Source of the DNA: a bacterium | GTDB lineage: Bacteria; UBA10199; 2-02-FULL-50-16; JAJFLM01 | Direction of reading: 5' to 3' | Length of the DNA: 64,000 nucleotides | Assembly: GCA_965216315.1 (NCBI GenBank) | Contig: CBDCFN010000016.1 | Location: 1,440,001-1,504,000, forward strand | Shown here: positions 20,723 through 32,836 of the stretch, piece by piece | Position numbering within the stretch: position 1 is the stretch's first letter | How the letters are laid out: each line of letters opens with the position of its first letter | The notes under the pieces: model-generated | What the model was told of the DNA's origin: nothing | Database searches by the model: none | Seen by the model: only the letters and a program-made list of their open reading frames with translations | Program-made: the position numbers and the translations under genes

Positions 20723-20767
20723 TCATTTGCAGTCTATTAACAATGCGACGCAAGCCCCTTTTGAATG

Positions 20768-20841
20768 TGGCGGTGGAGGGATTCGAACCCCCGACACAAC
20801 GGATATGAGCCGTTTGCTCTAACCGACTGAGCTACACCGCC
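20768..20841 (-). tRNA. tRNA-Met (CAT), probably elongator; CCA not encoded
   Basis: GGCGGTGTAGCTCAGTCGGTTAGAGCAAACGGCTCATATCCGTTGTGTCGGGGGTTCGAATCCCCTCCACCGCCA folds into a cloverleaf; G1-C72 is paired, so it is not initiator. Ile2 is not fully excluded. Confidence 0.9.
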
Positions 20842-22517: not shown

Positions 22518-23447
22518 TTACAATTTGATTTTATCTAATATCTTTTGGGCCGACTCATAGGGATTCGTTCCATTTCCCTGAATAAGTTTTGATTCGGAAA
22601 CTTTTTTACTGACTTCTTCTAAGATAATTTCATGCGTTTCTTGAGTCGCCAACTGCTTGCGGCGCTCATCACTCAAGCCCTGTTGACGAAGGAATCGCCT
22701 GTGTTCATCGATGGCTTCGATAAGTTTATCGACGCCGACATCATCGCGCGCCTGCACCAAAAGCACGGGGACCTTCCATGTGGAATTTGTTTCCGAATTC
22801 CCTCGGCTACTCTGACTGATATCGATCATCGCCATCAGTTCTTGGGCCATTTGATCCGCCCCGGCGCGATCCGCTTTATTCACGACGAAAATGTCCGCGA
22901 TTTCCAGTATGCCCGCCTTCATAGTTTGGATTGTATCGCCTGATTCGGGGGTCAAAACGACGATCGTCGTTTCCGCAATCCCCATGATATTCAGTTCGGT
23001 CTGGCCCACTCCAACAGTCTCAACAATCGCCTCATCAAAACCGAAGGCATCGATCAATTTGACCATCTCACGGGTCGCGCGCGACACGCCACCCAGACTA
23101 CCCCGTGTTCCGAGGCTGCGAATAAATACCTGGTCGTCGCCGGCATGCTCCTGCATCCGGATACGGTCCCCCATCACGGCCCCACCGCTGAACGGACTGG
23201 AGGGATCAATCGCGACGACCCCGACGCTCTTACGGGCGGCCCGCAAATGGGCAATCAGTCGGTCGACCAGTGTACTCTTGCCGGCGCCCGGAGGTCCGGT
23301 CACGCCAATGGTATGGACGTGTCCACAACGCTCTTGGATCTCCTGCATAATGGAAAACACACCCTCGGCGCGGTTTTCTACGAGGGTCATCAGTCGCGAG
23401 AGTGCCAGGGGGTCTTTTTGAAGTAACTTTTCAACGAGTGGATGCAT
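22518..23447 (-). CDS. meaB: Methylmalonyl-CoA mutase-associated GTPase MeaB/ArgK
   Basis: GVTGPPGAGKST, DPSSPFSGGA..GDRIRM, ETVGVGQ, VVNKAD. Confidence 0.92.
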   Translation of the reverse strand: MHPLVEKLLQKDPLALSRLMTLVENRAEGVFSIMQEIQERCGHVHTIGVTGPPGAGKSTLVDRLIAHLRAARKSVGVVAIDPSSPFSGGAVMGDRIRMQEHAGDDQVFIRSLGTRGSLGGVSRATREMVKLIDAFGFDEAIVETVGVGQTELNIMGIAETTIVVLTPESGDTIQTMKAGILEIADIFVVNKADRAGADQMAQELMAMIDISQSSRGNSETNSTWKVPVLLVQARDDVGVDKLIEAIDEHRRFLRQQGLSDERRKQLATQETHEIILEEVSKKVSESKLIQGNGTNPYESAQKILDKIKL

Positions 23448-23510
23448 GGGTTTATTGAAACTATCGGAGTAAGTAGTTGAAATCAATTGAAATACCGTGA
23501 GAACCTGCAA

Positions 23511-23656: not shown

Positions 23657-23683
23657 CAACGTGATCAGCGCGACTGTCGATTA
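23657..23683 (+). promoter_or_regulatory. sigma28-like promoter
   Basis: CAAC-N15-GTCGATTA; the same motif precedes several other orphan genes. Confidence 0.5.
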
Positions 23684-23729
23684 TATAAATAATTACATGG
23701 ACTTATAATGTCCTCCCATGTCGGCGCGT

Positions 23730-23745
23730 TGGCACGGGACTTGCT
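23730..23745 (+). promoter_or_regulatory. sigma54 (-24/-12) promoter
   Basis: TGGCACGGGACTTGCT, an exact match to TGGCAC-N5-TTGCW, 45 nt upstream of ATG 23790. Confidence 0.82.
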
Positions 23746-23789
23746 ATATACTACGGTGAAGGATCAGTTCCTTCAGGAGAAAGAATAAT

Positions 23790-24824
23790 ATGTCAGATCC
23801 AGTAGGACAATACGAAGGCGTCAGCGAAATGATCGCCGAGATGATGGAGCAGATGCAGGAGTCTACGAATCAGCAGATTCGTCAGTCCAAGCGTACCATG
23901 ATCACGGAGATGGTCACGGCCCGCCAGCGGCGTGCCACGCAGTCCGTTTTCAATCAACTGGCTGACAACCTGATGGACATTCAATCGGCCCGTAATCTCC
24001 GCAAAGAACTCAAGATGGGGGCGCTTGAAACCGCTTCCGTCCCGGAGTGGAAATCCGCTGAAGAGGTCCGCGCCGAGGCGCCCGAAGTGAGCAAAGGCGG
24101 CGGCGATCCGCTCATCGCCAAATACCAAGGTCTCGCCGACAACTTAGGCGCGATTGTCGCTCACCTTGAAGGCGGTGGTAGCGTTGATGATAAAATGAGC
24201 GAGGCCGGACTCGAAGGCTTTGGGACCATGACGATTCGTCAGTTTCTCGAGGCCCAGAATATCAATCCCAACGACCTCAACGAAATCAAAGAAGCTCAGC
24301 AGGATGCCCAAGCCGTTGCCGATAAAATTGATGAATGGATGTCCAGTGCCACGGATCAATCAGTCGAGGAATTCATGGATGCCCTGTGGGACCGTGCCGA
24401 TAACCTCGATCCGGATACAGTCCAGGAGATCATGGATGCCGTTGAGCACTATAGTGAGATGAAGCGGATCCAAGGTGTCATTGATGAGGCCATTGCCGAT
24501 GGCGCGACCAGCGGGTTTGAAATCATCCTCTATATGACCGATACGTCAAAGGTTGCCGGCGGGGAAGAAATGCTTGAATATCTCGCCGCGCATGGCATTT
24601 TCCTTGAAGGCTCGGCCGATGAGGTCAAAAATGCCATCCAGGCCGAAGTCGACTCCGCCAAGGCCCACATGGATGCCGTAATCGAAGCGAACATGGATGA
24701 CAGCTATGTCGGCGAATCCAGCGTGAGCACGCAAAGTGCGATGCAGACCGCTAGCGACGAACTCAGCGCTCCGGACAGCTCAGAAGAGGACGAAGAGCTG
24801 GATGAGATCTTAAACGACCTCTAG
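23790..24824 (+). CDS. Acidic, Met/Gln/Glu-rich all-alpha hypothetical protein
   Basis: RBS AGGAGA; 344 aa; no signal peptide or catalytic motif. Confidence 0.85.
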   Translation: MSDPVGQYEGVSEMIAEMMEQMQESTNQQIRQSKRTMITEMVTARQRRATQSVFNQLADNLMDIQSARNLRKELKMGALETASVPEWKSAEEVRAEAPEVSKGGGDPLIAKYQGLADNLGAIVAHLEGGGSVDDKMSEAGLEGFGTMTIRQFLEAQNINPNDLNEIKEAQQDAQAVADKIDEWMSSATDQSVEEFMDALWDRADNLDPDTVQEIMDAVEHYSEMKRIQGVIDEAIADGATSGFEIILYMTDTSKVAGGEEMLEYLAAHGIFLEGSADEVKNAIQAEVDSAKAHMDAVIEANMDDSYVGESSVSTQSAMQTASDELSAPDSSEEDEELDEILNDL

Positions 24825-24855
24825 TCTCTCCCGGCGCCCCAATTACTTGAAAATA

Positions 24856-24884
24856 TTGAAAATTTGGCCTGTCTGCATTAGTAT
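24856..24884 (+). promoter_or_regulatory. sigma70-like promoter
   Basis: TTGAAA-N17-TAGTAT. Confidence 0.55.
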
Positions 24885-24901
24885 GGCAGCTGCGGAGTGC
24901 T

Positions 24902-25600
24902 ATGGCCGATTTAAAGCGCGCAAAAGAGATCATGGATTGGCTTTGGAAGCAGATGCACCGAGGCAATCTCAAAATGCCCGCCGATCAACTCATCTTTGAG
25001 GGCGAGCACGACCTCGTCTATCTGTACAACACCGGCTTTGTCGATACGGATAAGTTCTCGCTAGATAAGTGGATCCAGGCCTTCCGCGAAAGCCGGCAAC
25101 GGGACGGCAGTTACAGCCTGACCCATGAACAATGGCTGGATAAAGTCACCTATCGCTACAATGAAAAAGTGGAAGCCCCCTTTGATATAATGGCCATCAG
25201 GGAAGGAGAATGGACTGAATCGGAGTGGAAAGACTTTGTCAAAGAAAAGATCATGCCAGAGACAATTTTTACCTATGATCAGTTCTTAAAAGGCTTTGAA
25301 GAAGGCAAGAAGGCCGGCAAGCTTAAAAATGGCATGGTCATTGTAACGCAGGAACTCAAACAAACTTGGCTGCAGGCAATTAACAAAAACCCTTCACCTC
25401 AACGTCACCGCGCTCTCGCAGTCCACCGTATTCGTCAGCATGAAAACTTTGAATCTCCGTCTGGGATGCAAAAATCAAAAGGGGCTGCGAAACGACCTGT
25501 AGTTACTGAACAGGAAAAGACTAAATATGATAAAAGTCCTGACCGACAGAAACAAATGACAGGTAAACTCAGTGATCTGCTTTCGGGATCTAAAAAGTAG
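24902..25600 (+). CDS. Unknown family X, paralog 1
   Basis: Shares DLVxxYxxGFVD...W..AF..S.Q.DG.Y...PF...KNG...PSP with the genes at 31065 and 31781. Confidence 0.88.
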   Translation: MADLKRAKEIMDWLWKQMHRGNLKMPADQLIFEGEHDLVYLYNTGFVDTDKFSLDKWIQAFRESRQRDGSYSLTHEQWLDKVTYRYNEKVEAPFDIMAIREGEWTESEWKDFVKEKIMPETIFTYDQFLKGFEEGKKAGKLKNGMVIVTQELKQTWLQAINKNPSPQRHRALAVHRIRQHENFESPSGMQKSKGAAKRPVVTEQEKTKYDKSPDRQKQMTGKLSDLLSGSKK

Positions 25601-25609
25601 TATTGACCC

Positions 25610-26974
25610 ATGTTTAAGGTCGCACTCATTACCGCTAAAAAAAGAAGCCCCGAGTATCTTTTTCAAACTTCTGGCATTGATCTTGGTACCATGTCGCTCG
25701 AGGCCTATATATCAGCACAAACCGATGATGTTGATGTCTTGGTCACTGAAGAAATAGAAGATATCATTAAATACAGCCCCGACCTGCTAGGCATTTCAAC
25801 AACTTCAGAAAACTACTTTCTTGCAACAAAGATCGCGAAAGAAGTCCGAACTAAAATTGATTGCCGGGTTGTCGTTGGGGGTGCCCACATAACTGGATGT
25901 CCCGAATCGCTCACGCACGATTTCGAACTCGGAGTCCGCGGCGAAGGCGAAGAAACTTTTTTAGAAGTCATCGAAACTTTTAAACGCGGCGAAAATAATC
26001 CCAACAATTACAAAGATATTCAAGGCATCGCATATCACGGAGAAAATGGCCCGATACTAACACCACTACGACCGCCCATAAAAGACCTGGGAGCTCTCCC
26101 CGTTCCGAACCGGAGAAAATGGGTCGAGAAGATAGGCCTCCCCTTTTTGATGACAGTAAGAGGCTGTCCGTTTCACTGTTGGTTCTGCGCGGCTCGTGAA
26201 ACCTATACGGGACTCCGCTACTTTCCAGTTGATCACGCTATCGCCGAAATAAAAGATATCATCGACAATTTTCATCCCCAATGCATCCGTATTTTTGATG
26301 ATGTTTTCAATCTCAGCAAGGATCGCGTCAAAGAATTTACTTCGCGCATGATCTCAGAGGGGCTTACAAAAGACGTCTCCTATATCTGCTGGGTACGAGC
26401 AGAGCTACTCGACCAAGAATACGTAGACTTATTGAGCAAAGCCAATTTTGTTCATGTTTCATTTGGGGTGGAGTCAGCAGACGAGGCGCTGATGAAAAAA
26501 ATGAAAGGTGGGCGTATTGACTTGCAATCGGTTCAATCAGCTATCGATATGCTGCATGCTGCGGGAATCAATATCGCTTGCACCTTTATCATTGGGACAC
26601 CTGGTGAAACGACGAAGGAACTCGATGAAACCTACGAATTCATTGAGAAAAATTTTGACAAACTGTTGGATGTCGAAATTAACCCTTTGATTCCCATGCC
26701 TGCCACGCCATTGTGGACTCATGCAGAAAAACGCGGACTCGTCAGCAAGGACATGAATTGGGATATATTATCCGACACCGGAGTCCTGCTCGCCTTTAAT
26801 AGTGATGACTATATATACTTGAATGATGCGATGCCTAAAGAAGTTTTCCTCTCTTATGTCGAAAAATTTAAGGCGCTCTATAAAAGAATCATAGAAAAAC
26901 CGCAAATAGCTGAATTTGCCGAAAAAACTTTTCCAATGTCCGTATTTCCTGCAAGGCTTAAGCGCCTGAGTTAA
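25610..26974 (+). CDS. Cobalamin-binding radical SAM enzyme (class B methyltransferase-like)
   Basis: PDLLGIS, VVGGAH and GEGE B12-binding domain; RGCPFHCWFC (CX3CX2C); FGVES. Confidence 0.92.
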   Translation: MFKVALITAKKRSPEYLFQTSGIDLGTMSLEAYISAQTDDVDVLVTEEIEDIIKYSPDLLGISTTSENYFLATKIAKEVRTKIDCRVVVGGAHITGCPESLTHDFELGVRGEGEETFLEVIETFKRGENNPNNYKDIQGIAYHGENGPILTPLRPPIKDLGALPVPNRRKWVEKIGLPFLMTVRGCPFHCWFCAARETYTGLRYFPVDHAIAEIKDIIDNFHPQCIRIFDDVFNLSKDRVKEFTSRMISEGLTKDVSYICWVRAELLDQEYVDLLSKANFVHVSFGVESADEALMKKMKGGRIDLQSVQSAIDMLHAAGINIACTFIIGTPGETTKELDETYEFIEKNFDKLLDVEINPLIPMPATPLWTHAEKRGLVSKDMNWDILSDTGVLLAFNSDDYIYLNDAMPKEVFLSYVEKFKALYKRIIEKPQIAEFAEKTFPMSVFPARLKRLS

Positions 26975-27995
26975 GGTGATACTTATCAAAAATCTTGGCG
27001 GGGTCGCCACCCAAGATCCGGATTAATGCTCTTAAGTCATCGAGGGTATACTCAACCACATCCGGCATTCCTGCGTAGGCATCAATCACCTCAAAGGGAG
27101 TTTTATCACATTCCTCGGCCAAGATATCGATAAGCTGTAGTGGATAAAGGTCGCGGCGATAGGAAGCGAGATAGTAAGTATACCAATGAGGACGCGTCTG
27201 ATTCGCAAAAATGGGACGCACAAATTCGCCAGCCTCGATCAGCTTATTCAGATTAATCGAACATTTTAATTTAAGCTGTTGCATGACAATCACTAAGGCC
27301 TCTAAAAAAACATTACCTGCATCCTTACCCATTCCTAAGAGACTTGCATCGACAATCGTACAGCCAGCATCCATGGCTTCAAGTGTATTGGCCAGGGCGA
27401 GCTGCAAGGTATTATGCGCATGAAACCCCAGAGGCTGCTGGCTCACTTTCCGGATCGCTTCGACATAGCGTGTCACTTCACCCGGTAACATACATCCGGT
27501 CGTATCGACGAGATAGACATAATCTACCCCCCAATCCGAAAGCTTTTTGACCGACTCAGCAATTTGTTCAGGTTTCACGGCATAGGATCGCGTCAGTTGA
27601 GCACACACTTCGAGTTTTTCTTGTTGGCAATGCTCGATGAATGGCTTCAAGGGCTCCGGTTGGATAGGAGAAGAAATGAGCCGCACAAAATCATAATACT
27701 CAGCGACCGCACTGATTTCATCTTGGGACGCACAGCGCGGATCCGCGAGGGCTCCAAGCTTGGCCTTTTTCTGTCCGCGTGCCGCCGCCTGGGCATAAGC
27801 GAGATCATCCGCTCCATGAGGATAGCCTTGCTTTTGGGCTCCAACTCCAGCACCGTGACTGGCCTCAATATAGGCCACGCCGGCCGCATCAAGCCGCGCG
27901 ACAATTCCCTCAATCTGCTCTGGAGTATAGGCGAAATCGAGCAGGAAACTCCCGTCACGTATCGTGACATCCATAATTTGAGCGGTACTTGGCAT
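26958..27995 (-). CDS. HMGL-like (DRE-TIM) aldolase, 4-hydroxy-2-oxovalerate aldolase-like
   Basis: DVTIRDG, YIEASHG.G, YLVDTTG, GFHAHN, DASLLGMG..AGN. Confidence 0.85.
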   Translation of the reverse strand: MPSTAQIMDVTIRDGSFLLDFAYTPEQIEGIVARLDAAGVAYIEASHGAGVGAQKQGYPHGADDLAYAQAAARGQKKAKLGALADPRCASQDEISAVAEYYDFVRLISSPIQPEPLKPFIEHCQQEKLEVCAQLTRSYAVKPEQIAESVKKLSDWGVDYVYLVDTTGCMLPGEVTRYVEAIRKVSQQPLGFHAHNTLQLALANTLEAMDAGCTIVDASLLGMGKDAGNVFLEALVIVMQQLKLKCSINLNKLIEAGEFVRPIFANQTRPHWYTYYLASYRRDLYPLQLIDILAEECDKTPFEVIDAYAGMPDVVEYTLDDLRALIRILGGDPAKIFDKYHLNSGA

Positions 27996-28081
27996 AATCC
28001 CTTGAAATTGTTAGAATAATATATCAGCAACTGAGGCGGAAAACAATAAAAAATATAGCAATTTCAGATAGTTACACTACG

Positions 28082-28109
28082 CAACTCGAACACGCCTCAG
28101 GGTCGATAA
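28082..28109 (+). promoter_or_regulatory. sigma28-like promoter
   Basis: CAAC-N16-GTCGATAA. Confidence 0.55.
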
Positions 28110-28132
28110 TTAAGGCGTAGGAAATTATTACA

Positions 28133-28525
28133 ATGGATTTATACCTTTTTGATAATGATCCCAAGATAGTCCGCCTGAAACCAGGAAAGTTTTTTGGCGT
28201 CGCAGCGGCTGTCGGTGTGGCAGGAGCCGTCGCGGCAGTTGCCGGAGCGGCCATTACCGCTGGAACGACTGCGAGTGAAGGGGCCAAAAACCGGGCTGCT
28301 AGCCAACAGGCGATGTCGATGCAACAGGCCAACGAGAGCGCCCATGCCCAGGACGAAATGGCCGCTCATATGATGCAAGTCTTTCAGGATGACGGCATCG
28401 CGGCAGCGGCCGGTGGAATGGCGCAGAACAACGCGATTGGCCTGATGGGCGTCGGTGGCATGATGGGCCAAGGCGGCGAAGGTGGTCAGGGGGGCCAAGG
28501 CGGCCCGATGGGAATGCCCGTATAA
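28133..28525 (+). CDS. Small Gly/Ala/Gln/Met-rich protein with hydrophobic helix
   Basis: FFGVAAAVGVAGAVAAVAGAAITAG followed by a Gln-rich helix; paralogous to the gene at 28546. Confidence 0.75.
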   Translation: MDLYLFDNDPKIVRLKPGKFFGVAAAVGVAGAVAAVAGAAITAGTTASEGAKNRAASQQAMSMQQANESAHAQDEMAAHMMQVFQDDGIAAAAGGMAQNNAIGLMGVGGMMGQGGEGGQGGQGGPMGMPV

Positions 28526-28545
28526 ACTTTTTTTGAGGAGACCAA

Positions 28546-28974
28546 ATGGCAGGCGATACAACCGTACAGAATCAGACTCCGGTAGCACCGCCACCCGCGG
28601 ACACCCTTTCCGGCGGCGGAGCCGGTGCAACCGGATCCGAAGGCGCGCAGGCCGCCGGTGGCATCGCTGGGGCTGTAGCCGCACTTGGCGGATCCATTGC
28701 CGGCGGAGTCATCACTGCCAACAATGGCGCCAACCAACGCGCCGCCCTCATTGAAGGGACCCGCGCACAAATTCATGCGCAACAGACCGAGCGATCAATG
28801 GCCATGGCCGTCATGTCACAGCAACTCGGTGAACTTGAAAGTAGACAAATGATTGCCGCGTCATTGGGAGTCGGCGGAGCGGGCCAAGGCACGACCACCG
28901 ATACGACGCAAACGGATCCCAATCTCAGTCCAGATCGTCCAACCGGGACGCCTCAAAATCGCAACTTCGCCTAA
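28546..28974 (+). CDS. Small Gly/Ala/Gln-rich protein with Pro-rich N-terminus and hydrophobic helix
   Basis: RBS GAGGAG; 14/28 ungapped identity to the 28133 protein across AGAVAA...GAxxRAA. Confidence 0.8.
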   Translation: MAGDTTVQNQTPVAPPPADTLSGGGAGATGSEGAQAAGGIAGAVAALGGSIAGGVITANNGANQRAALIEGTRAQIHAQQTERSMAMAVMSQQLGELESRQMIAASLGVGGAGQGTTTDTTQTDPNLSPDRPTGTPQNRNFA

Positions 28975-29654
28975 TCTAACCGTTCTTGCGGAACCAAAAC
29001 TTCATGAGCCCGCAACCACTTGGTCGCGGTCCACTTCTCACCGATTTCTACCGGGCAAGACGCATGCAGCGAATTCTCATCGATCTGCTCACCGACCGAA
29101 CAATTCTTGAAGTAAAGCGCGGCCCCTTGCTTCGGCCGCACCCCCAGCTTCAGCTTGGGGAAGGTTGTTTCGCCGCCCCGCTCCACATCCGATAAATAAA
29201 GGAGCACGGTGCCGACCCGCTGGCCGCCTCCCGCCAGCAACGAATGACTGCCCGCATATTGGGGATCAAAATAGTCATGATGCGCCTTATATTCTTTGCC
29301 GATTTGGTAGTGCAGCACGTGAAACGGTTCGCCTTTGTTGACCGGATGCTGCACCCACGCCGCAATGCGCGCCTCCAGACAACTCACGCGCATGTTTTGT
29401 TGCCGCTTCAAGAAGACTCCCTGACTCGTCCGCATGCCGACAAATTGTTCATCCGGCAAGCCAGCAATATTGGTTAATCCGGACGGCTTTAAATCAGGCT
29501 GTGCCAGTTCGATTAAATACGCGCATTCCTCCGGACTGAGAAACTCCGGCCAGATTTCAATATAGGGGCTCACGCTCAGGACTTCTCGTCGCTGCGGTGT
29601 CACATAGCGCCACCGTTTCCAAAAACGGAAATCGATACTAGGAAATAGTCGCAT
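28971..29654 (-). CDS. 2OG-Fe(II) oxygenase, prolyl 4-hydroxylase-like
   Basis: EYKAHHDYF (HxD), GGQRVGTVLLYLSDVERGGETTFP, LHASCPV..GEKW..TKW. Confidence 0.92.
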   Translation of the reverse strand: MRLFPSIDFRFWKRWRYVTPQRREVLSVSPYIEIWPEFLSPEECAYLIELAQPDLKPSGLTNIAGLPDEQFVGMRTSQGVFLKRQQNMRVSCLEARIAAWVQHPVNKGEPFHVLHYQIGKEYKAHHDYFDPQYAGSHSLLAGGGQRVGTVLLYLSDVERGGETTFPKLKLGVRPKQGAALYFKNCSVGEQIDENSLHASCPVEIGEKWTATKWLRAHEVLVPQERLD

Positions 29655-29783
29655 CCCTTAACCATCTCATCGCGCTAGGCTAATAAGCGATATTGCCATA
29701 AACTATTGAAATTGTTAAGGTAATCAAGAGCGCTCACGCAAAAAAACGTGAAATACTCAATGATTACATGACGTTACAGCTAA

Positions 29784-29810
29784 CAACCCGAGCGGCGCAT
29801 CCGCCGATAA
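29784..29810 (+). promoter_or_regulatory. sigma28-like promoter
   Basis: CAAC-N15-GCCGATAA, with an exact FliA -10 consensus. Confidence 0.65.
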
Positions 29811-29817
29811 TAAGGGG

Positions 29818-30474
29818 ATGACGATGCAAGCGCAGCAGCGGCGGGTCCCGCCGCATATTCAGCATCCTGACGGCCATACGGTCTATCTAATCGATGACGC
29901 CGAGATGGATGAATTGCTCCCTCCGCCCACGGAGCTTCCAATCCCTTGTAGTGGCTTTATGGACCATGAGGGCCACATCCACTACGAGCTCTGCCATTTT
30001 AGCTGGTACCCGCCGCGAGGCTTCTGGAACAAGCTCAAGATCAGCTTTAACATGAAAGACTATTACCTCTCCACCCCGCGCCATCTCTGCGAAGGAGGCC
30101 TCCATCGAGACCCCAATGAGCTTGTCGGCGCCGGCGTTGCGACCTATTACCCCCAGGATCACCATGCCGAACTCGTCCACCTCGGGCTCCGCCCCCGGAG
30201 CGAGATACCCGAATTTGACGTAAGTCTTCGAAAAGACGCGATTTTTCGCTTTCAGCGCAGCTACAATCGCTTCATTCAGTGGTTGGGCGGGACCCGCCTG
30301 ACGACCTATACCGCCATTATTCCGGATGACAAGATGCAGGCCCTCGGCTGGAAACCGTTTAAGTTCTCCAGCATGAGAGAGCGCTTAAAATATTTTTGGT
30401 ACTGTTTACCCCCGAGCTTATTTGGTAAGCTACGTGCATACGAAATAAATTTGCCCGTAGACGAAACTGGATGA
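29818..30474 (+). CDS. Hypothetical protein, possible GNAT-like fold
   Basis: ELVGAGVATY...AELVHLGLRP and MQALGWKP resemble GNAT beta3-beta4 and the C-terminal motif; fold call is weak. Confidence 0.6.
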   Translation: MTMQAQQRRVPPHIQHPDGHTVYLIDDAEMDELLPPPTELPIPCSGFMDHEGHIHYELCHFSWYPPRGFWNKLKISFNMKDYYLSTPRHLCEGGLHRDPNELVGAGVATYYPQDHHAELVHLGLRPRSEIPEFDVSLRKDAIFRFQRSYNRFIQWLGGTRLTTYTAIIPDDKMQALGWKPFKFSSMRERLKYFWYCLPPSLFGKLRAYEINLPVDETG

Positions 30475-30491
30475 GCCTAAGAGCCCGATAA
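30464..30491 (+). promoter_or_regulatory. sigma28-like promoter
   Basis: AAAC-N16-CCCGATAA. Confidence 0.5.
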
Positions 30492-30556
30492 TAATCATGT
30501 AGGCGGCTCTATCGAGTCGCCTCGCCTAACAAGCTTTTTAGCGAAGGAGTTTTTAT

Positions 30557-30943
30557 ATGTCTTCAGGATCCCCACCGCCGGCGCCACCGCCAGTCGATTA
30601 TAATCCCGCCATGAGCGTTCAGGCCATGGCCAGTGCTGACAAGATGGCCATGTTCGTCGGAGGCCAGGTTCAGCAAACCATGTTGCAGACCAACATGATG
30701 AACCTCATGGGCATGCGCATGCAGATGATGCAGGAAGACAAGCTCGATGCCAAACTCGAGATTGCCTCCATGAATTACGAAGCGCGCATGCAAGAGGCCC
30801 AGTGGCGTCATGAAGAAAGAACCCAGGAACTGGCCAATAACCACGTCGAAGCCTTAGTCGACAAGGGCATGATGGATCAGGAACAGTTCTCCGACATCCG
30901 CTACCCTTATCAATGGGGCGGTTCGGGAGATGCAGGCGCCTAA
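30557..30943 (+). CDS. Small Met/Gln-rich helical protein with N-terminal polyproline
   Basis: RBS AAGGAG; MSSGSPPPAPPPVDY; followed by a terminator. Confidence 0.85.
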   Translation: MSSGSPPPAPPPVDYNPAMSVQAMASADKMAMFVGGQVQQTMLQTNMMNLMGMRMQMMQEDKLDAKLEIASMNYEARMQEAQWRHEERTQELANNHVEALVDKGMMDQEQFSDIRYPYQWGGSGDAGA

Positions 30944-30976
30944 GTAAAGAATATTATATGCTGCAGCTCGTTCAGC

Positions 30977-31015
30977 AAACCCACTTAGAGCGATTGCTTT
31001 AAGTGGGTTTTTTTT
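30977..31015 (+). terminator. Rho-independent terminator
   Basis: AAACCCACTTAGAGC-GATT-GCTTTAAGTGGGTTT hairpin plus T run. Confidence 0.85.
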
Positions 31016-31024
31016 CGGCTCATC

Positions 31025-31053
31025 TTGACGCGATTCCATGATACAGATACCCT
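31025..31053 (+). promoter_or_regulatory. sigma70-like promoter
   Basis: TTGACG-N17-TACCCT. Confidence 0.5.
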
Positions 31054-31064
31054 ACTCTCCACTC

Positions 31065-31601
31065 ATGTCTTTCTTCACGGATATCTGGGACAAGATTGCC
31101 AAGGACGATGGAACCGGAACACGCGTCATTAGGTATGGCTCCCTTGATGACTTGGTCTTTCTCTACGCCTCGGGTTTTGTCGACGCCGAAAAATACGATC
31201 TTAAAGCCTGGCTTGAAGCCTTCGATTCAAGCAAACAGAGTGATGGTTCTTACGTCATCAACAAGGGGCACTGGCTTGAAAAGGAAAAGTTCCATTATCA
31301 TGGCCCGATCCGCGATCCGTTTGAAGCCCACCTCATCCCGGAAAAAGAATTCACCGAAGCCGAACTGATTGAGCTCTTTAATCAGTGTATTGTCCCCTCG
31401 TCACAGGCGACCAAAGAATCCATTCCTAATTTCATCCGCCTGTATGAGAATCGAAACCTGCTTAAGAACGGCAAAATGATGATGACCAAAGAGATCAAGC
31501 AGGAATTACATGACTTCATCGAAGCCTTTCCATCCCCCTTGCGCGTGTTGGAAACCCATCTACACGAAATGCTCCCTTCCGCGGAGAAGAAGCCAGAATA
31601 A
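31065..31601 (+). CDS. Unknown family X, paralog 2 (no C-terminal tail)
   Basis: Collinear and highly similar to the 31781 protein; start set by alignment (MSFFTDIW vs MALFDEIW). Confidence 0.88.
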   Translation: MSFFTDIWDKIAKDDGTGTRVIRYGSLDDLVFLYASGFVDAEKYDLKAWLEAFDSSKQSDGSYVINKGHWLEKEKFHYHGPIRDPFEAHLIPEKEFTEAELIELFNQCIVPSSQATKESIPNFIRLYENRNLLKNGKMMMTKEIKQELHDFIEAFPSPLRVLETHLHEMLPSAEKKPE

Positions 31602-31714
31602 CCCTTGCAGCGCTAGACGCAACGCAGCATTATCAGTTTGAGAATCCCAATTAGCCGAACAATTAAGGCCTCTTCCAACCTCACGTTTTTCCAAGACTTT
31701 TTCAGCTCGCCTGC

Positions 31715-31743
31715 TTGACGTCACCTTTTAAAAGAGATAATCT
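31715..31743 (+). promoter_or_regulatory. sigma70-like promoter
   Basis: TTGACG-N17-TAATCT. Confidence 0.6.
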
Positions 31744-31780
31744 GAGATCGTGAGTAATCTCAGGGGGTTAGTGTAAGCTC

Positions 31781-32488
31781 ATGGCGCTGTTTGATGAAAT
31801 TTGGAAAAAGGTTTCCGAAGACGATGGCACGGGCACGCGGGTCATCAAATACGGGTCCAATGAGGACCTCGTCTTCATCTATGCCTCGGGCTTTGTGGAC
31901 TCCGCCAAATACGACCTCAAATCCTGGCTGGATGCCTTCGAGCCGAGCAAACAAGAAGATGGTACCTACAAGGTTTCGCAGGCGCAATGGGCGGAAAAAG
32001 AAAAATTTTATTACACGGGTTCCGTGCGCGACCCTTTTAACGCCCTCTTGATCCCGGAACAGAATTTTACCGAGGCGGAGTTGCTGGATCTATTTAATAC
32101 CTGCATTGTTCCTTCGTCCCAAGCCACGCCCAAGACGGTCCCCAACTTTATCAGAGATTATAAAGCACGCGGGCTCTTTAAAAACGGGAAAATTATGATG
32201 GATAAGAAGCTGAAGGAAGAGCTTCATGCCTTCATCACAGCCTTCCCTTCTCCACTGCGCGTCCTGGAAACAAACGTGCAAAAACTGCTTCGAGGTGAAA
32301 AGCCCCTGGCGGCCGGCGGCAGTACCAAGACCGGCTATTCACCCGGAGAAAGCAAGGTCAAGACGACGCAGGCGCAACTTGAGGCCATCCTCGGTGGAAG
32401 CGGACGGGCAGCCCCGGCCCCCAAACCTCAGGAAGATCAAATGTCCGTGAAAGATTTGCAAAAGCAAATCAAGAAAAGGCCCGTCTAA
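31781..32488 (+). CDS. Unknown family X, paralog 3
   Basis: DDGTGTRVI.YGS..DLVF.YASGFVD..KYDLK.WL shared with the 31065 protein. Confidence 0.9.
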   Translation: MALFDEIWKKVSEDDGTGTRVIKYGSNEDLVFIYASGFVDSAKYDLKSWLDAFEPSKQEDGTYKVSQAQWAEKEKFYYTGSVRDPFNALLIPEQNFTEAELLDLFNTCIVPSSQATPKTVPNFIRDYKARGLFKNGKIMMDKKLKEELHAFITAFPSPLRVLETNVQKLLRGEKPLAAGGSTKTGYSPGESKVKTTQAQLEAILGGSGRAAPAPKPQEDQMSVKDLQKQIKKRPV

Positions 32489-32494
32489 GCCCAC

Positions 32495-32836
32495 TCAGTG
32501 ACCGGAATCTGCAGTCGATTGCGCGTGTAAGGCCAGCTCTCGCTCCAACTCTTTTTCCAGTTCCTTGATACGTTTTGCCTGCTCTTTACTGGCTTGACGC
32601 CTAAAGATCGCCGGCAGTGCCTGCAAAAACGCCAACAAGAGAATCCCACCCGAAAAAGCAATGATCAGGACAAACCCCAATGGCATTTCGACCGAGCGGA
32701 GCGTTAACAGGCCGGGGATCTTAAACCGAAATACCATCGGATAACCGAGGATTTCAGGGCTCATGTTACTGTAGAGAAAATTTAGCAGGACAAACAAAAT
32801 AAGCGCCAGTACGACGGCATTGATAATTTTTTTCAT
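32495..32836 (-). CDS. LapA-family (LPS assembly protein A) membrane protein
   Basis: Two TM helices, MPLGFVLIIAF.GG, coiled tail; typical position after ihfB. Confidence 0.7.
   Translation of the reverse strand: MKKIINAVVLALILFVLLNFLYSNMSPEILGYPMVFRFKIPGLLTLRSVEMPLGFVLIIAFSGGILLLAFLQALPAIFRRQASKEQAKRIKELEKELERELALHAQSTADSGH

Follow-up and report, generated by a model that had tools for sequence, protein, structure and literature searches.

A candidate two-gene module, X and S, in an uncultured bacterial lineage and its possible link to a non-flagellar type III secretion system

Which cellular process could bring together, between two housekeeping genes of an uncultured bacterium, three copies of an unannotated protein family, several small helical proteins and a handful of modifying enzymes? 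The locus that raises this question occupies positions 23657-32488 of the window, by which we mean the whole 64,000-nucleotide stretch that was analyzed (positions 1,440,001 to 1,504,000 of contig CBDCFN010000016.1, here C16, from assembly GCA_965216315.1, a genome of 2.96 Mb). It contains eleven open reading frames (ORFs; Table 1) and is bordered by meaB (22518-23510, minus strand) on one side and by a LapA-domain gene (32495-32836, minus strand) on the other. Pfam placed three of the eleven products in known families, a B12-binding radical SAM enzyme, an HMGL-like aldolase and a prolyl 4-hydroxylase (P4H)-type 2-oxoglutarate (2OG) oxygenase, and the remaining eight gave nothing above the curated cut-offs of Pfam, NCBIfam and PHROGs.

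A preliminary description of the locus had proposed a chromosomally domesticated, alternative-sigma-driven set of exported proteins with dedicated partners and post-translational modification, an interpretation that, taken as a whole, is partly supported by our analysis. Paralogy, conservation, synteny, a predicted interface between a conserved family, X, and a small helical family, S, the presence of a secretion system of type III (T3SS), and motif and promoter types shared with it were all obtained by computation. What we infer beyond these results is export, a chaperone role for X, and whatever modification the aldolase, P4H, radical SAM or GNAT-fold enzymes may carry out. The reading that we favor, tentatively and at somewhat less than an even chance, is that the S-type proteins are T3SS substrates and that X is a new kind of chaperone.

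Family X and its fast-evolving partner

Three of the eight orphan proteins, X1, X2 and X3, proved to be what the preliminary description had taken them for, paralogs from a single unrecognized family. X2 and X3 were 63% identical and X1 was about 29-30% identical to either, which marks them as true paralogs, and a profile search of the whole 2.96-Mb genome returned these three copies only (hidden Markov model [HMM] E values of 5e-115 to 4e-99). The start of X2 first chosen, at 31065, is more likely than the alternative at 31038. A profile made from the three paralogs detected X in 55 of 61 related genomes (46 of the 49 high-quality ones), and a 30-sequence profile detected it in 81 of the 93 genomes sampled across the entire lineage (in 59 of 63 when only high-quality genomes are counted). 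All X-bearing genomes fall in one class, in which they span 24 families.

Beyond this lineage, the family left few traces. The X profile matched only 141 clusters among 1.84 billion representative proteins, and a word-indexed homolog search with X3 returned 17 proteins, each named "hypothetical" at most. An ESM Atlas look-up of X3 gave no usable match, a PDB sequence search with the X profile gave nothing meaningful, and a related-locus search with the three-sequence X alignment returned one locus only. X, S and the family of the neighboring protein D218 correspond to no curated family in Pfam, NCBIfam or PHROGs; no literature search was aimed at these families.

We fetched 55 X loci from relatives, which together with the window made 56 sources onto which the window's proteins were mapped and counted. 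An X match to the window proteins was found in 54 of the 56; the exceptions are L064 and L074, which have divergent X copies that escaped tblastn. Counts of neighbors per locus are lower bounds, contig ends having cut many loci. The usual position of X is between meaB and the series lapA-HIT-IHF-sppA-rpsA: lapA or HIT lay within about 2.5 kb of X in 34 of 54 loci and meaB within 6 kb in 25. This position is syntenic across the 24 families, amid the housekeeping genes der, meaB, lapA, ihf, sppA and rpsA, and the expectation that the genes co-occur in related genomes was borne out; X itself is present in 55 of 61 relatives.

The conserved setting also bears on the proposed origin of the orphans as domesticated phage pilot or ejection proteins, which had been suggested by their low-complexity Gly/Ala- and Gln-rich architecture. 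That architecture is the only feature that speaks for such an origin. None of the eight orphans had a PHROG match, no phage structural, terminase or integrase match was found with PHROGs among the region's proteins, and there are no phage genes nearby. The base composition of the region is ordinary and the locus is syntenic across the lineage. The statement that the region lacks capsid, terminase, integrase and transporter genes agreed with PHROGs and with the list of its eleven ORFs, whereas domestication from a phage found no such agreement, and we consider it very improbable.

Immediately upstream of X, most loci have an ORF for a protein of 110-210 residues in three parts, with a variable N-terminus, a helical core and, often, an aromatic-Gly C-terminal tail. 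The N-terminus may be Pro-rich, may begin with MG, or may carry a hydrophobic Gly/Ala stretch of 25-30 residues; by inspection, the last of these is frequent among S proteins, chiefly those of families f4, f7 and f11, and is followed by a charged coiled coil. To define the S family, we took seven orthologs of E128, the product of the gene at 30557, as seed and iterated a profile search through every ORF in the 56 sources; it converged on 46 ORFs from 30 sources. In 27 of 54 loci, X is preceded on the same strand by an S gene. Searched against the whole genome that carries the window, the final profile matched only five ORFs, E128 and four paralogs, and therefore had not drifted into generic coiled coils. 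Divergence within S is very rapid, and loci that have it carry from one to five copies, with five tandem copies in L017 and three each in L021, L022, L023 and L047.

The four E128 paralogs lie elsewhere in the genome (C16:2143152-2145043 and C16:1824811-1825224), have long Gly-rich N-termini and have no X gene nearby. Three of them stand in tandem, each after a sigma-54 box, beside genes for LemA- and DUF2207-like membrane proteins. In several families, a conserved gene for an exported FG-GAP-like protein of about 400 residues is found a few genes from the S-X pair (L024, L025, L027 and L034).

The proposal that the small proteins have dedicated partners gained from a complex prediction. X3 and E128 together gave ipSAE scores of 0.82, 0.83 and 0.84, compared to 0.00 for the best of three controls. 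Of 157 solved complexes, 116 attain the calibration mark for this score, as do 2 of 215 mismatched pairs, counts that apply only roughly here because the prediction used our own alignments. The partner was modeled with a predicted local distance difference test (pLDDT) of 52-56, and at least 40% of the contacts were common to the runs. The predicted interface joins X3 residues 3-38, 82 and 162-170 to E128 residues 63-82. On the E128 side it includes the invariant residues L63, K66, I69 and A70, and on the X side L33, G37 and F38, which are conserved. X would thus contact the conserved part of S and not its variable parts. These data, which are a prediction and not a measurement, suggest that X3 binds the conserved helix of E128.

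In the AlphaFold2 (AF2) model of X3, residues 1-170 mostly have pLDDT values above 90 and the tail is disordered. Across the family, length ranges from about 180 to 290 residues, and the disordered tail carries short conserved motifs. Foldseek against the PDB returned nothing at an E value of 0.001 or below; the best matches were EF-hand proteins, at 0.047 or weaker. A VIA all-against-all structure search aligned the two halves of X, residues 1-81 and 86-157, to EF-hand pair domains with Z values of 3.2-4.6, which is within the range that the tool warns may be chance. Because these matches are weak or within the range of chance, "two EF-hand-pair-like lobes" is used here as a description of X and not as family membership. 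X had no Pfam EF-hand match, and a canonical calcium loop was not seen by inspection.

A non-flagellar T3SS and a shared start motif

FHIPEP, the family of FlhA and SctV, was found in 60 of the 61 genomes. Flagellin was not found in the genome that carries the window and occurred in seven of the 61, the seven that have an extra, higher-scoring FHIPEP copy; a flagellar rod/hook C-terminal domain was likewise not found in this genome. Its single SctV gene (C16:339170) opens a cluster that extends about 35 kb downstream (C16:339000-376500; L076, L077 and L078). The cluster encodes two YscD-type FHA proteins, SctJ, a weak FliG_C-like protein, SctL, SctN, YscO-like, HpaP/FliK-like, FliM-like, FliN, weakly FliO-like, FliP and Bac_export_1 proteins, together with a sigma-54 activator that has an FHA domain, a PEGA Ser/Thr kinase and five large orphans. 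Also encoded are a FliA/WhiG-like sigma factor (best NCBIfam E value of 1.3e-38, below the cut-off) and three TPR proteins that resemble LcrH/SycD or SctY/CdsG (2.9e-21, 2.5e-19 and 1.5e-10, all below the NCBIfam cut-off). The genome has two secretin matches, both outside the cluster. Judged from its gene content, the cluster is a non-flagellar T3SS, and the export apparatus that T3SS substrates require is present as SctV, J, L, N, O, Q-like, R and T.

A 183-residue protein of this cluster has a C-terminus that looks needle-like to us, a label that draws on its sequence pattern and on the CdsG/SctY-like TPR gene that follows. The Pfam needle family had only a sub-threshold match in this genome (E value of 0.14), and a PDB sequence search with the 183-residue protein gave nothing meaningful.

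One link between this cluster and the X locus comes from B130, an orphan that begins with a Met1-anchored motif and continues with a hydrophobic segment of Gly and Ala, a helix rich in Gln and Met, and a Gly-rich tail. Its first ~23 residues match the starts of two T3SS-cluster proteins of 601 and 611 residues (blastp E values of 0.002 and 0.076 against 13 subjects), both encoded just upstream of an LcrH-like gene. A loose six-residue regular expression applied to ORF starts matched five ORFs genome-wide: B130, the two T3SS-cluster proteins, RpoC and one internal match. In G017, a genome from another family, three tandem S-family proteins of the X locus begin with a related motif, and this lineage-specific variant also opens two proteins of that genome's T3SS cluster, 403 and 1081 residues long, the genes of which are placed in the same way relative to the LcrH-like genes. 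Classical T3SS signals are not known to have a conserved sequence, and for this reason a conserved N-terminal export motif would be unusual.

We then built a motif profile of 25 positions from these eight starts and searched it over the 61 whole genomes. It matched eight of them, and in two, G000 and G017, only the training sequences themselves. In G024, two new matches fell below an E value of 1e-5, and both lie on the contig that carries SctV, 23.6 and 28.4 kb downstream of it. Weaker matches were found in G001, G010, G026, G031 and G051 and were not placed relative to T3SS clusters; one of those in G031 is 122 kb from an SctV gene. A blastp search of A344, C142, E128, D218, X1 and X3 against 13 T3SS-cluster orphans returned nothing significant. 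We also considered a C-terminal R-x-F-A ending shared by C142 and two T3SS-cluster proteins and set it aside as too short and post hoc; 11 of 11,442 ORFs end in this way.

The translocator-like export link drawn in the preliminary description is strengthened by this motif, which B130 has in common with T3SS-cluster proteins beside LcrH/SycD-like chaperones, and export itself is an inference. On the reading that we favor, the core of the locus would be a lineage-specific two-gene module, made of a fast-evolving small helical S protein and a conserved cytosolic partner, X. In this genome the module would have been duplicated to give X1, X2 and X3, set among the orphans at 28133, 28546 and 23790 and variable modifying enzymes. 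X would act as a dedicated chaperone or adaptor that clamps the conserved amphipathic helix of S-type proteins in the cytoplasm, the non-flagellar T3SS would then export these proteins, and the FliA-like sigma factor and the sigma-54 activator would provide for expression. X would be the cognate chaperone expected beside a T3SS substrate, being adjacent to S in 27 of 54 loci and predicted to bind it. We prefer this secretion model because it alone explains a start-anchored motif that is shared, and co-varies, with T3SS-cluster proteins; it also fits the pairing of S with X, the polar N-termini of most orphans, the divergence and copy changes of S, and the near-universal T3SS. A fuller version appears rather unlikely to us: that S, B130 and their relatives are substrates of a non-flagellar T3SS that is itself ancient, that their conserved Met1 motif co-varies from lineage to lineage with the one on the translocator-like proteins of the system, that X is a new chaperone class with two EF-hand-like lobes, and that the variable neighboring enzymes (GNAT-fold, B12 radical SAM, P4H and methyltransferase) tailor the substrates before export.

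Several observations weigh against the secretion model. The proposed check of co-occurrence with T3SS and fliA genes did turn up a non-flagellar T3SS, a FliA-like sigma factor and a sigma-54 activator, but since almost every member of the lineage has X, and almost every member has the T3SS, their co-occurrence is not discriminating. As far as the profile can tell, the motif is confined to eight of the 61 genomes, and E128 itself does not have it. X was not matched to any known T3SS chaperone class: it had no TPR, CesT or FliS/FlgN family match in Pfam or NCBIfam, and its AF2 model is not a TPR solenoid, which sets it apart from class II chaperones (LcrH/SycD). CesT/SycE and FliS/FlgN/FliT were absent from its Foldseek and VIA match lists, an absence that does not exclude these families. 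The binding of S by X is a prediction with low partner pLDDT, and the Gly/Ala stretch of many S proteins looks like a membrane anchor, not a T3SS signal. X also stands in a housekeeping setting more than 1 Mb from the T3SS cluster, and in eight families it is tightly packed with aldolase or radical SAM genes, which the export model does not explain.

Some of these points would be expected if S and X formed a non-secreted, membrane-associated structural or regulatory complex with a role in the envelope, division or polarity. S would sit at the inner membrane, kept there by its Gly/Ala anchor or by another hydrophobic or acylated N-terminus, and X would be a cytosolic adaptor that docks further partners through its tail motifs. 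The many S proteins that begin with 25-30 hydrophobic residues and continue as a charged coiled coil are consistent with such a complex, as are the fixed position amid housekeeping genes in 24 families, the conserved short motifs of the disordered X tail, and the sigma-70-like TTGACG -35 elements seen by inspection before X2 and X3, which suggest steady expression. However, the fast divergence of S and its one to five copies per locus would be unusual for a core structural protein, the four further S paralogs of this genome have no X, and the motif in common with T3SS-cluster proteins would be left without explanation. We regard a membrane complex as somewhat unlikely, yet worth keeping beside the secretion model.

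Orphans, enzymes and promoters of the locus

The preliminary description had counted four helical or low-complexity orphans without signal peptides (A344, B130, C142 and E128). No family match was found for any of them, and inspection showed polar N-termini in A344, C142 and E128. B130, in contrast, has a hydrophobic stretch, as do many S relatives, and by inspection its residues 21-45 could be a membrane anchor instead of a soluble helix. A344, the acidic helical protein whose gene immediately precedes X1, had homologs in its own taxonomic family only (L016 and L041), and there too an X gene comes next in each case. A search for B130 in 60 relatives gave one weak match only. In L016, a B130 look-alike ORF occupies the same place and strand, and a compositional look-alike of C142 has a similar C-terminal ending. 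An antisense ORF of 181 codons (28139-28684, minus strand) is open across the genes at 28133 and 28546; it is not conserved, similar antisense ORFs occur in L022 and L023, and it is probably a by-product of G+C-rich low-complexity coding.

All four interspersed enzymes named at the outset were recovered, three by Pfam and the GNAT-like protein, D218, by fold only. The radical SAM enzyme combines an N-terminal B12-binding domain with a radical SAM core, as its class requires, and its best NCBIfam matches, ApyD, PhpK and BchE, were all far below the cut-off (114 bits compared to 750 for ApyD). The aldolase scored 201 bits against NCBIfam PRK08195, for which the cut-off is 229, and we therefore did not assign it a substrate. 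No P4H gene turned up in the 55 related loci; it was found in this genome only. The model of D218 matched the GNAT structures GCN5, PCAF, NAT and SpeG in Foldseek with a probability of 1.0 and E values of 4.3e-4 to 2e-3. D218 had no Acetyltransf sequence match in Pfam or NCBIfam, and it has a conserved L/M-G-G/A stretch that may be motif A. Its family occurs in 10 of the 61 genomes, with a homolog within 3 kb of X in 8 of 54 loci, and acyl transfer by D218 onto S would be a reasonable guess from the modeled fold.

As a fixed part of a system, by contrast, the enzymes did not hold up. Of 54 loci, 15 have an HMGL gene at a distance of 3 kb or less from X and 14 a B12 radical SAM gene, the P4H gene is private to this genome, and the enzymes differ in other lineages. 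X1-type short forms in relatives adjoin HMGL, radical SAM or meaB genes. X and an HMGL aldolase gene are adjacent on one strand, back-to-back or overlapping, in L017, L028, L031 and L033; in L016, an HpcH aldolase gene directly follows X and a canonical GNAT gene is also there. A gene for a TylF O-methyltransferase lies directly upstream of X in L022, L023 and L053, and a different radical SAM enzyme is encoded beside X in L034 and L062. The order D218 homolog, S, X recurs in families f1, f2 and f9.

These neighbors are what a protein-tailoring pathway like that of ribosomally synthesized and post-translationally modified peptides (RiPPs) might show, with S as large precursors that have a recognition helix and X as a non-enzymatic presenter to the enzymes. 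Different enzymes flank X by lineage (the B12 radical SAM, a second radical SAM type, TylF, an HMGL/HpcH aldolase and GNAT), S genes stand in tandem copies, X is predicted to sit on the conserved and not the variable part of S, and the best NCBIfam match of the radical SAM enzyme is a RiPP enzyme, ApyD, although its score is far below the cut-off. The S-X pair commonly stands alone, however: within 3 kb of X, 39 of 54 loci have no HMGL gene and 40 have no B12 radical SAM gene. No peptidase, transporter or PqqD-like domain was found among the eleven proteins, so that the region lacks the make-up of a RiPP cluster, precursors of 110-210 residues would be unusually long, and the P4H gene is unique to this genome. 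We consider a pathway of this kind improbable.

The opposite explanation, that the genes are unrelated neighbors, would make the enzymes, meaB and the aldehyde dehydrogenase metabolic, the orphans fast-evolving filler, and the S-X pair the sole functional unit. It agrees with the lineage-variable enzyme content and the restriction of P4H to this genome, with the lack of detectable homologs of B130 and C142 past the closest genus, and with genes that lie on both strands under separate promoters and with a terminator. It does not account for the adjacency of X to the aldolase genes in the five loci named above, nor for a D218-S-X order that recurs in three families. To us this explanation also has a low probability.

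The alternative-sigma promoters had been put forward as a mark of the cluster. Boxes are indeed present before the genes at 23790, 28133, 29818 and 30557, and the sigma-54 box at 23730 (TGGCACGGGACTTGCT) is the single match in the window compared to 0.02 expected. Such boxes are not distinctive, though, each type having about 100 sites genome-wide: the sigma-28-like motif has 99, compared to about 12 expected by composition and 8 in the reversed genome, and the sigma-54 motif has 101, compared to 6 in the reversed genome. For both types, most sites are found a short way upstream of an ORF start. Lipoprotein-like or orphan genes follow many of them, and alternative sigma factors thus seem, from these motif scans, to control a large part of the lineage-specific gene set. 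Within the T3SS cluster, the sigma-28-like motif stands before five genes and sigma-54 boxes before two; the former is also found upstream of B130 and E128, and the latter upstream of A344 and of three E128 paralogs. Because of the ~100 sites per type, this sharing of promoters is weak evidence and counts with the points raised against the secretion model.

Other features of the surroundings were recorded as well. Rfam and tRNA scans found no Rfam family or tRNA in the region. A tRNA-Met gene lies at 20767-20841 (minus strand), between a fatty-acyl-reductase-like gene and the aldehyde dehydrogenase-meaB operon. In L018, from a one-contig genome (G057), both the D218 homolog and the aldehyde dehydrogenase homolog are broken into two ORFs, and there are in-frame stops in several X matches, which gene decay or long-read indel errors could explain.

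Table 1. Genes and regulatory features of the locus, in window coordinates
Feature	Position	Strand	Support or remark
Sigma-54 promoter-like box, TGGCACGGGACTTGCT	23730..23745	+	exact TGGCAC-N5-TTGCW; 44 nt upstream of 23790
A344, acidic helical orphan directly upstream of X1	23790..24824	+	no family match above cut-off
X1, short-tailed family X paralog	24902..25600	+	HMM E 5e-115; paralog alignments
B12-binding radical SAM enzyme	25610..26974	+	Pfam PF04055 Radical_SAM 5.8e-24 and PF02310 B12-binding 2.7e-11, both above cut-off
HMGL-like (DmpG-type) aldolase	26958..27995	-	Pfam PF00682 5.7e-38, above cut-off
Sigma-28-like promoter GCAACT-N17-CGATAA upstream of 28133	28081..28109	+	genome motif scan, C16:1468081-1468109
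B130, orphan with Met1-anchored motif	28133..28525	+
C142, Gly/Ala- and Gln-rich orphan	28546..28974	+	no family match
P4H-type 2OG-Fe(II) oxygenase (2OG-FeII_Oxy_3)	28971..29654	-	Pfam PF13640 9.6e-15
Box GCCGATAA upstream of 29818	29803..29810	+
D218, divergent GNAT-fold protein	29818..30474	+	AF2 pLDDT 82.3; Foldseek
Sigma-28-like promoter GAAACT-N17-CGATAA upstream of 30557	30463..30491	+	genome motif scan, C16:1470463-1470491
E128, S-family small helical protein, predicted X ligand	30557..30943	+	iterated profile; complex prediction with X3
Intrinsic terminator-like hairpin after E128	30977..31010	+	15-pair stem, then T-run
X2, tail-less paralog of X3	31065..31601	+	paralog alignment with X3; HMM E 4e-99
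X3, long-tailed family X protein, convergent with lapA	31781..32488	+	AF2 pLDDT 84.5

Relation to known systems

The substrates of the non-flagellar T3SS in the former "Deltaproteobacteria" are not known, and the locus supplies candidates in the form of a binder/ligand pair and a start-anchored motif. Even without a link to secretion, X and S would be a signature module of a whole uncultured lineage, and X combines a high-confidence fold prediction with the absence of annotated relatives. One parallel is the "needleless" T3SS* of Myxococcus xanthus (mxan_2434-2464), which is reported to be needed for prey lysis, where it works with the Kil Tad-like pilus, and has effectors that are given as unknown (PMC12075869). 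As described there, it is like the present cluster in being non-flagellar, in belonging to the former "Deltaproteobacteria" and in having no secretin in the cluster, a likeness of description; the cluster likewise recalls the secretin-less T3SS described for Myxococcales (PMC3459982). The narrow distribution of X makes its presence in Myxococcus unlikely.

RiPP clusters with a B12 radical SAM enzyme, such as those of the proteusins and ApyD, resemble the locus in that tandem variable small proteins occur with a radical SAM enzyme and a non-enzymatic binder. They differ from it in the score of ApyD, in the peptidase, exporter and PqqD-like domain that the locus lacks, and in that most X loci have no enzyme genes. 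Calmodulin-like proteins clamp amphipathic helices, and each half of X superposes weakly on EF-hand pair proteins such as calmodulin, troponin C and sorcin, from which X differs by having no Pfam EF-hand match and no canonical calcium loop visible on inspection.

A further close comparison is with the substrate-chaperone pairs of T3SS, represented by LcrH/SycD, YscG/CdsG and FliS/FlgN/FliT. Unlike these chaperones, X is not a TPR protein and has two EF-hand-pair-like lobes with a motif-bearing disordered tail; the X locus also lies more than 1 Mb from the T3SS cluster, where the genome has canonical LcrH-like and CdsG/SctY-like TPR chaperones of its own, some S proteins appear by inspection to have a membrane anchor, and enzyme genes are interleaved. 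As in those pairs, the genes of substrate and binder stand side by side, the small helical proteins mostly appear, by inspection, to have no Sec signals, FliA-type promoters are present, and the binder is predicted here to clamp an amphipathic helix.

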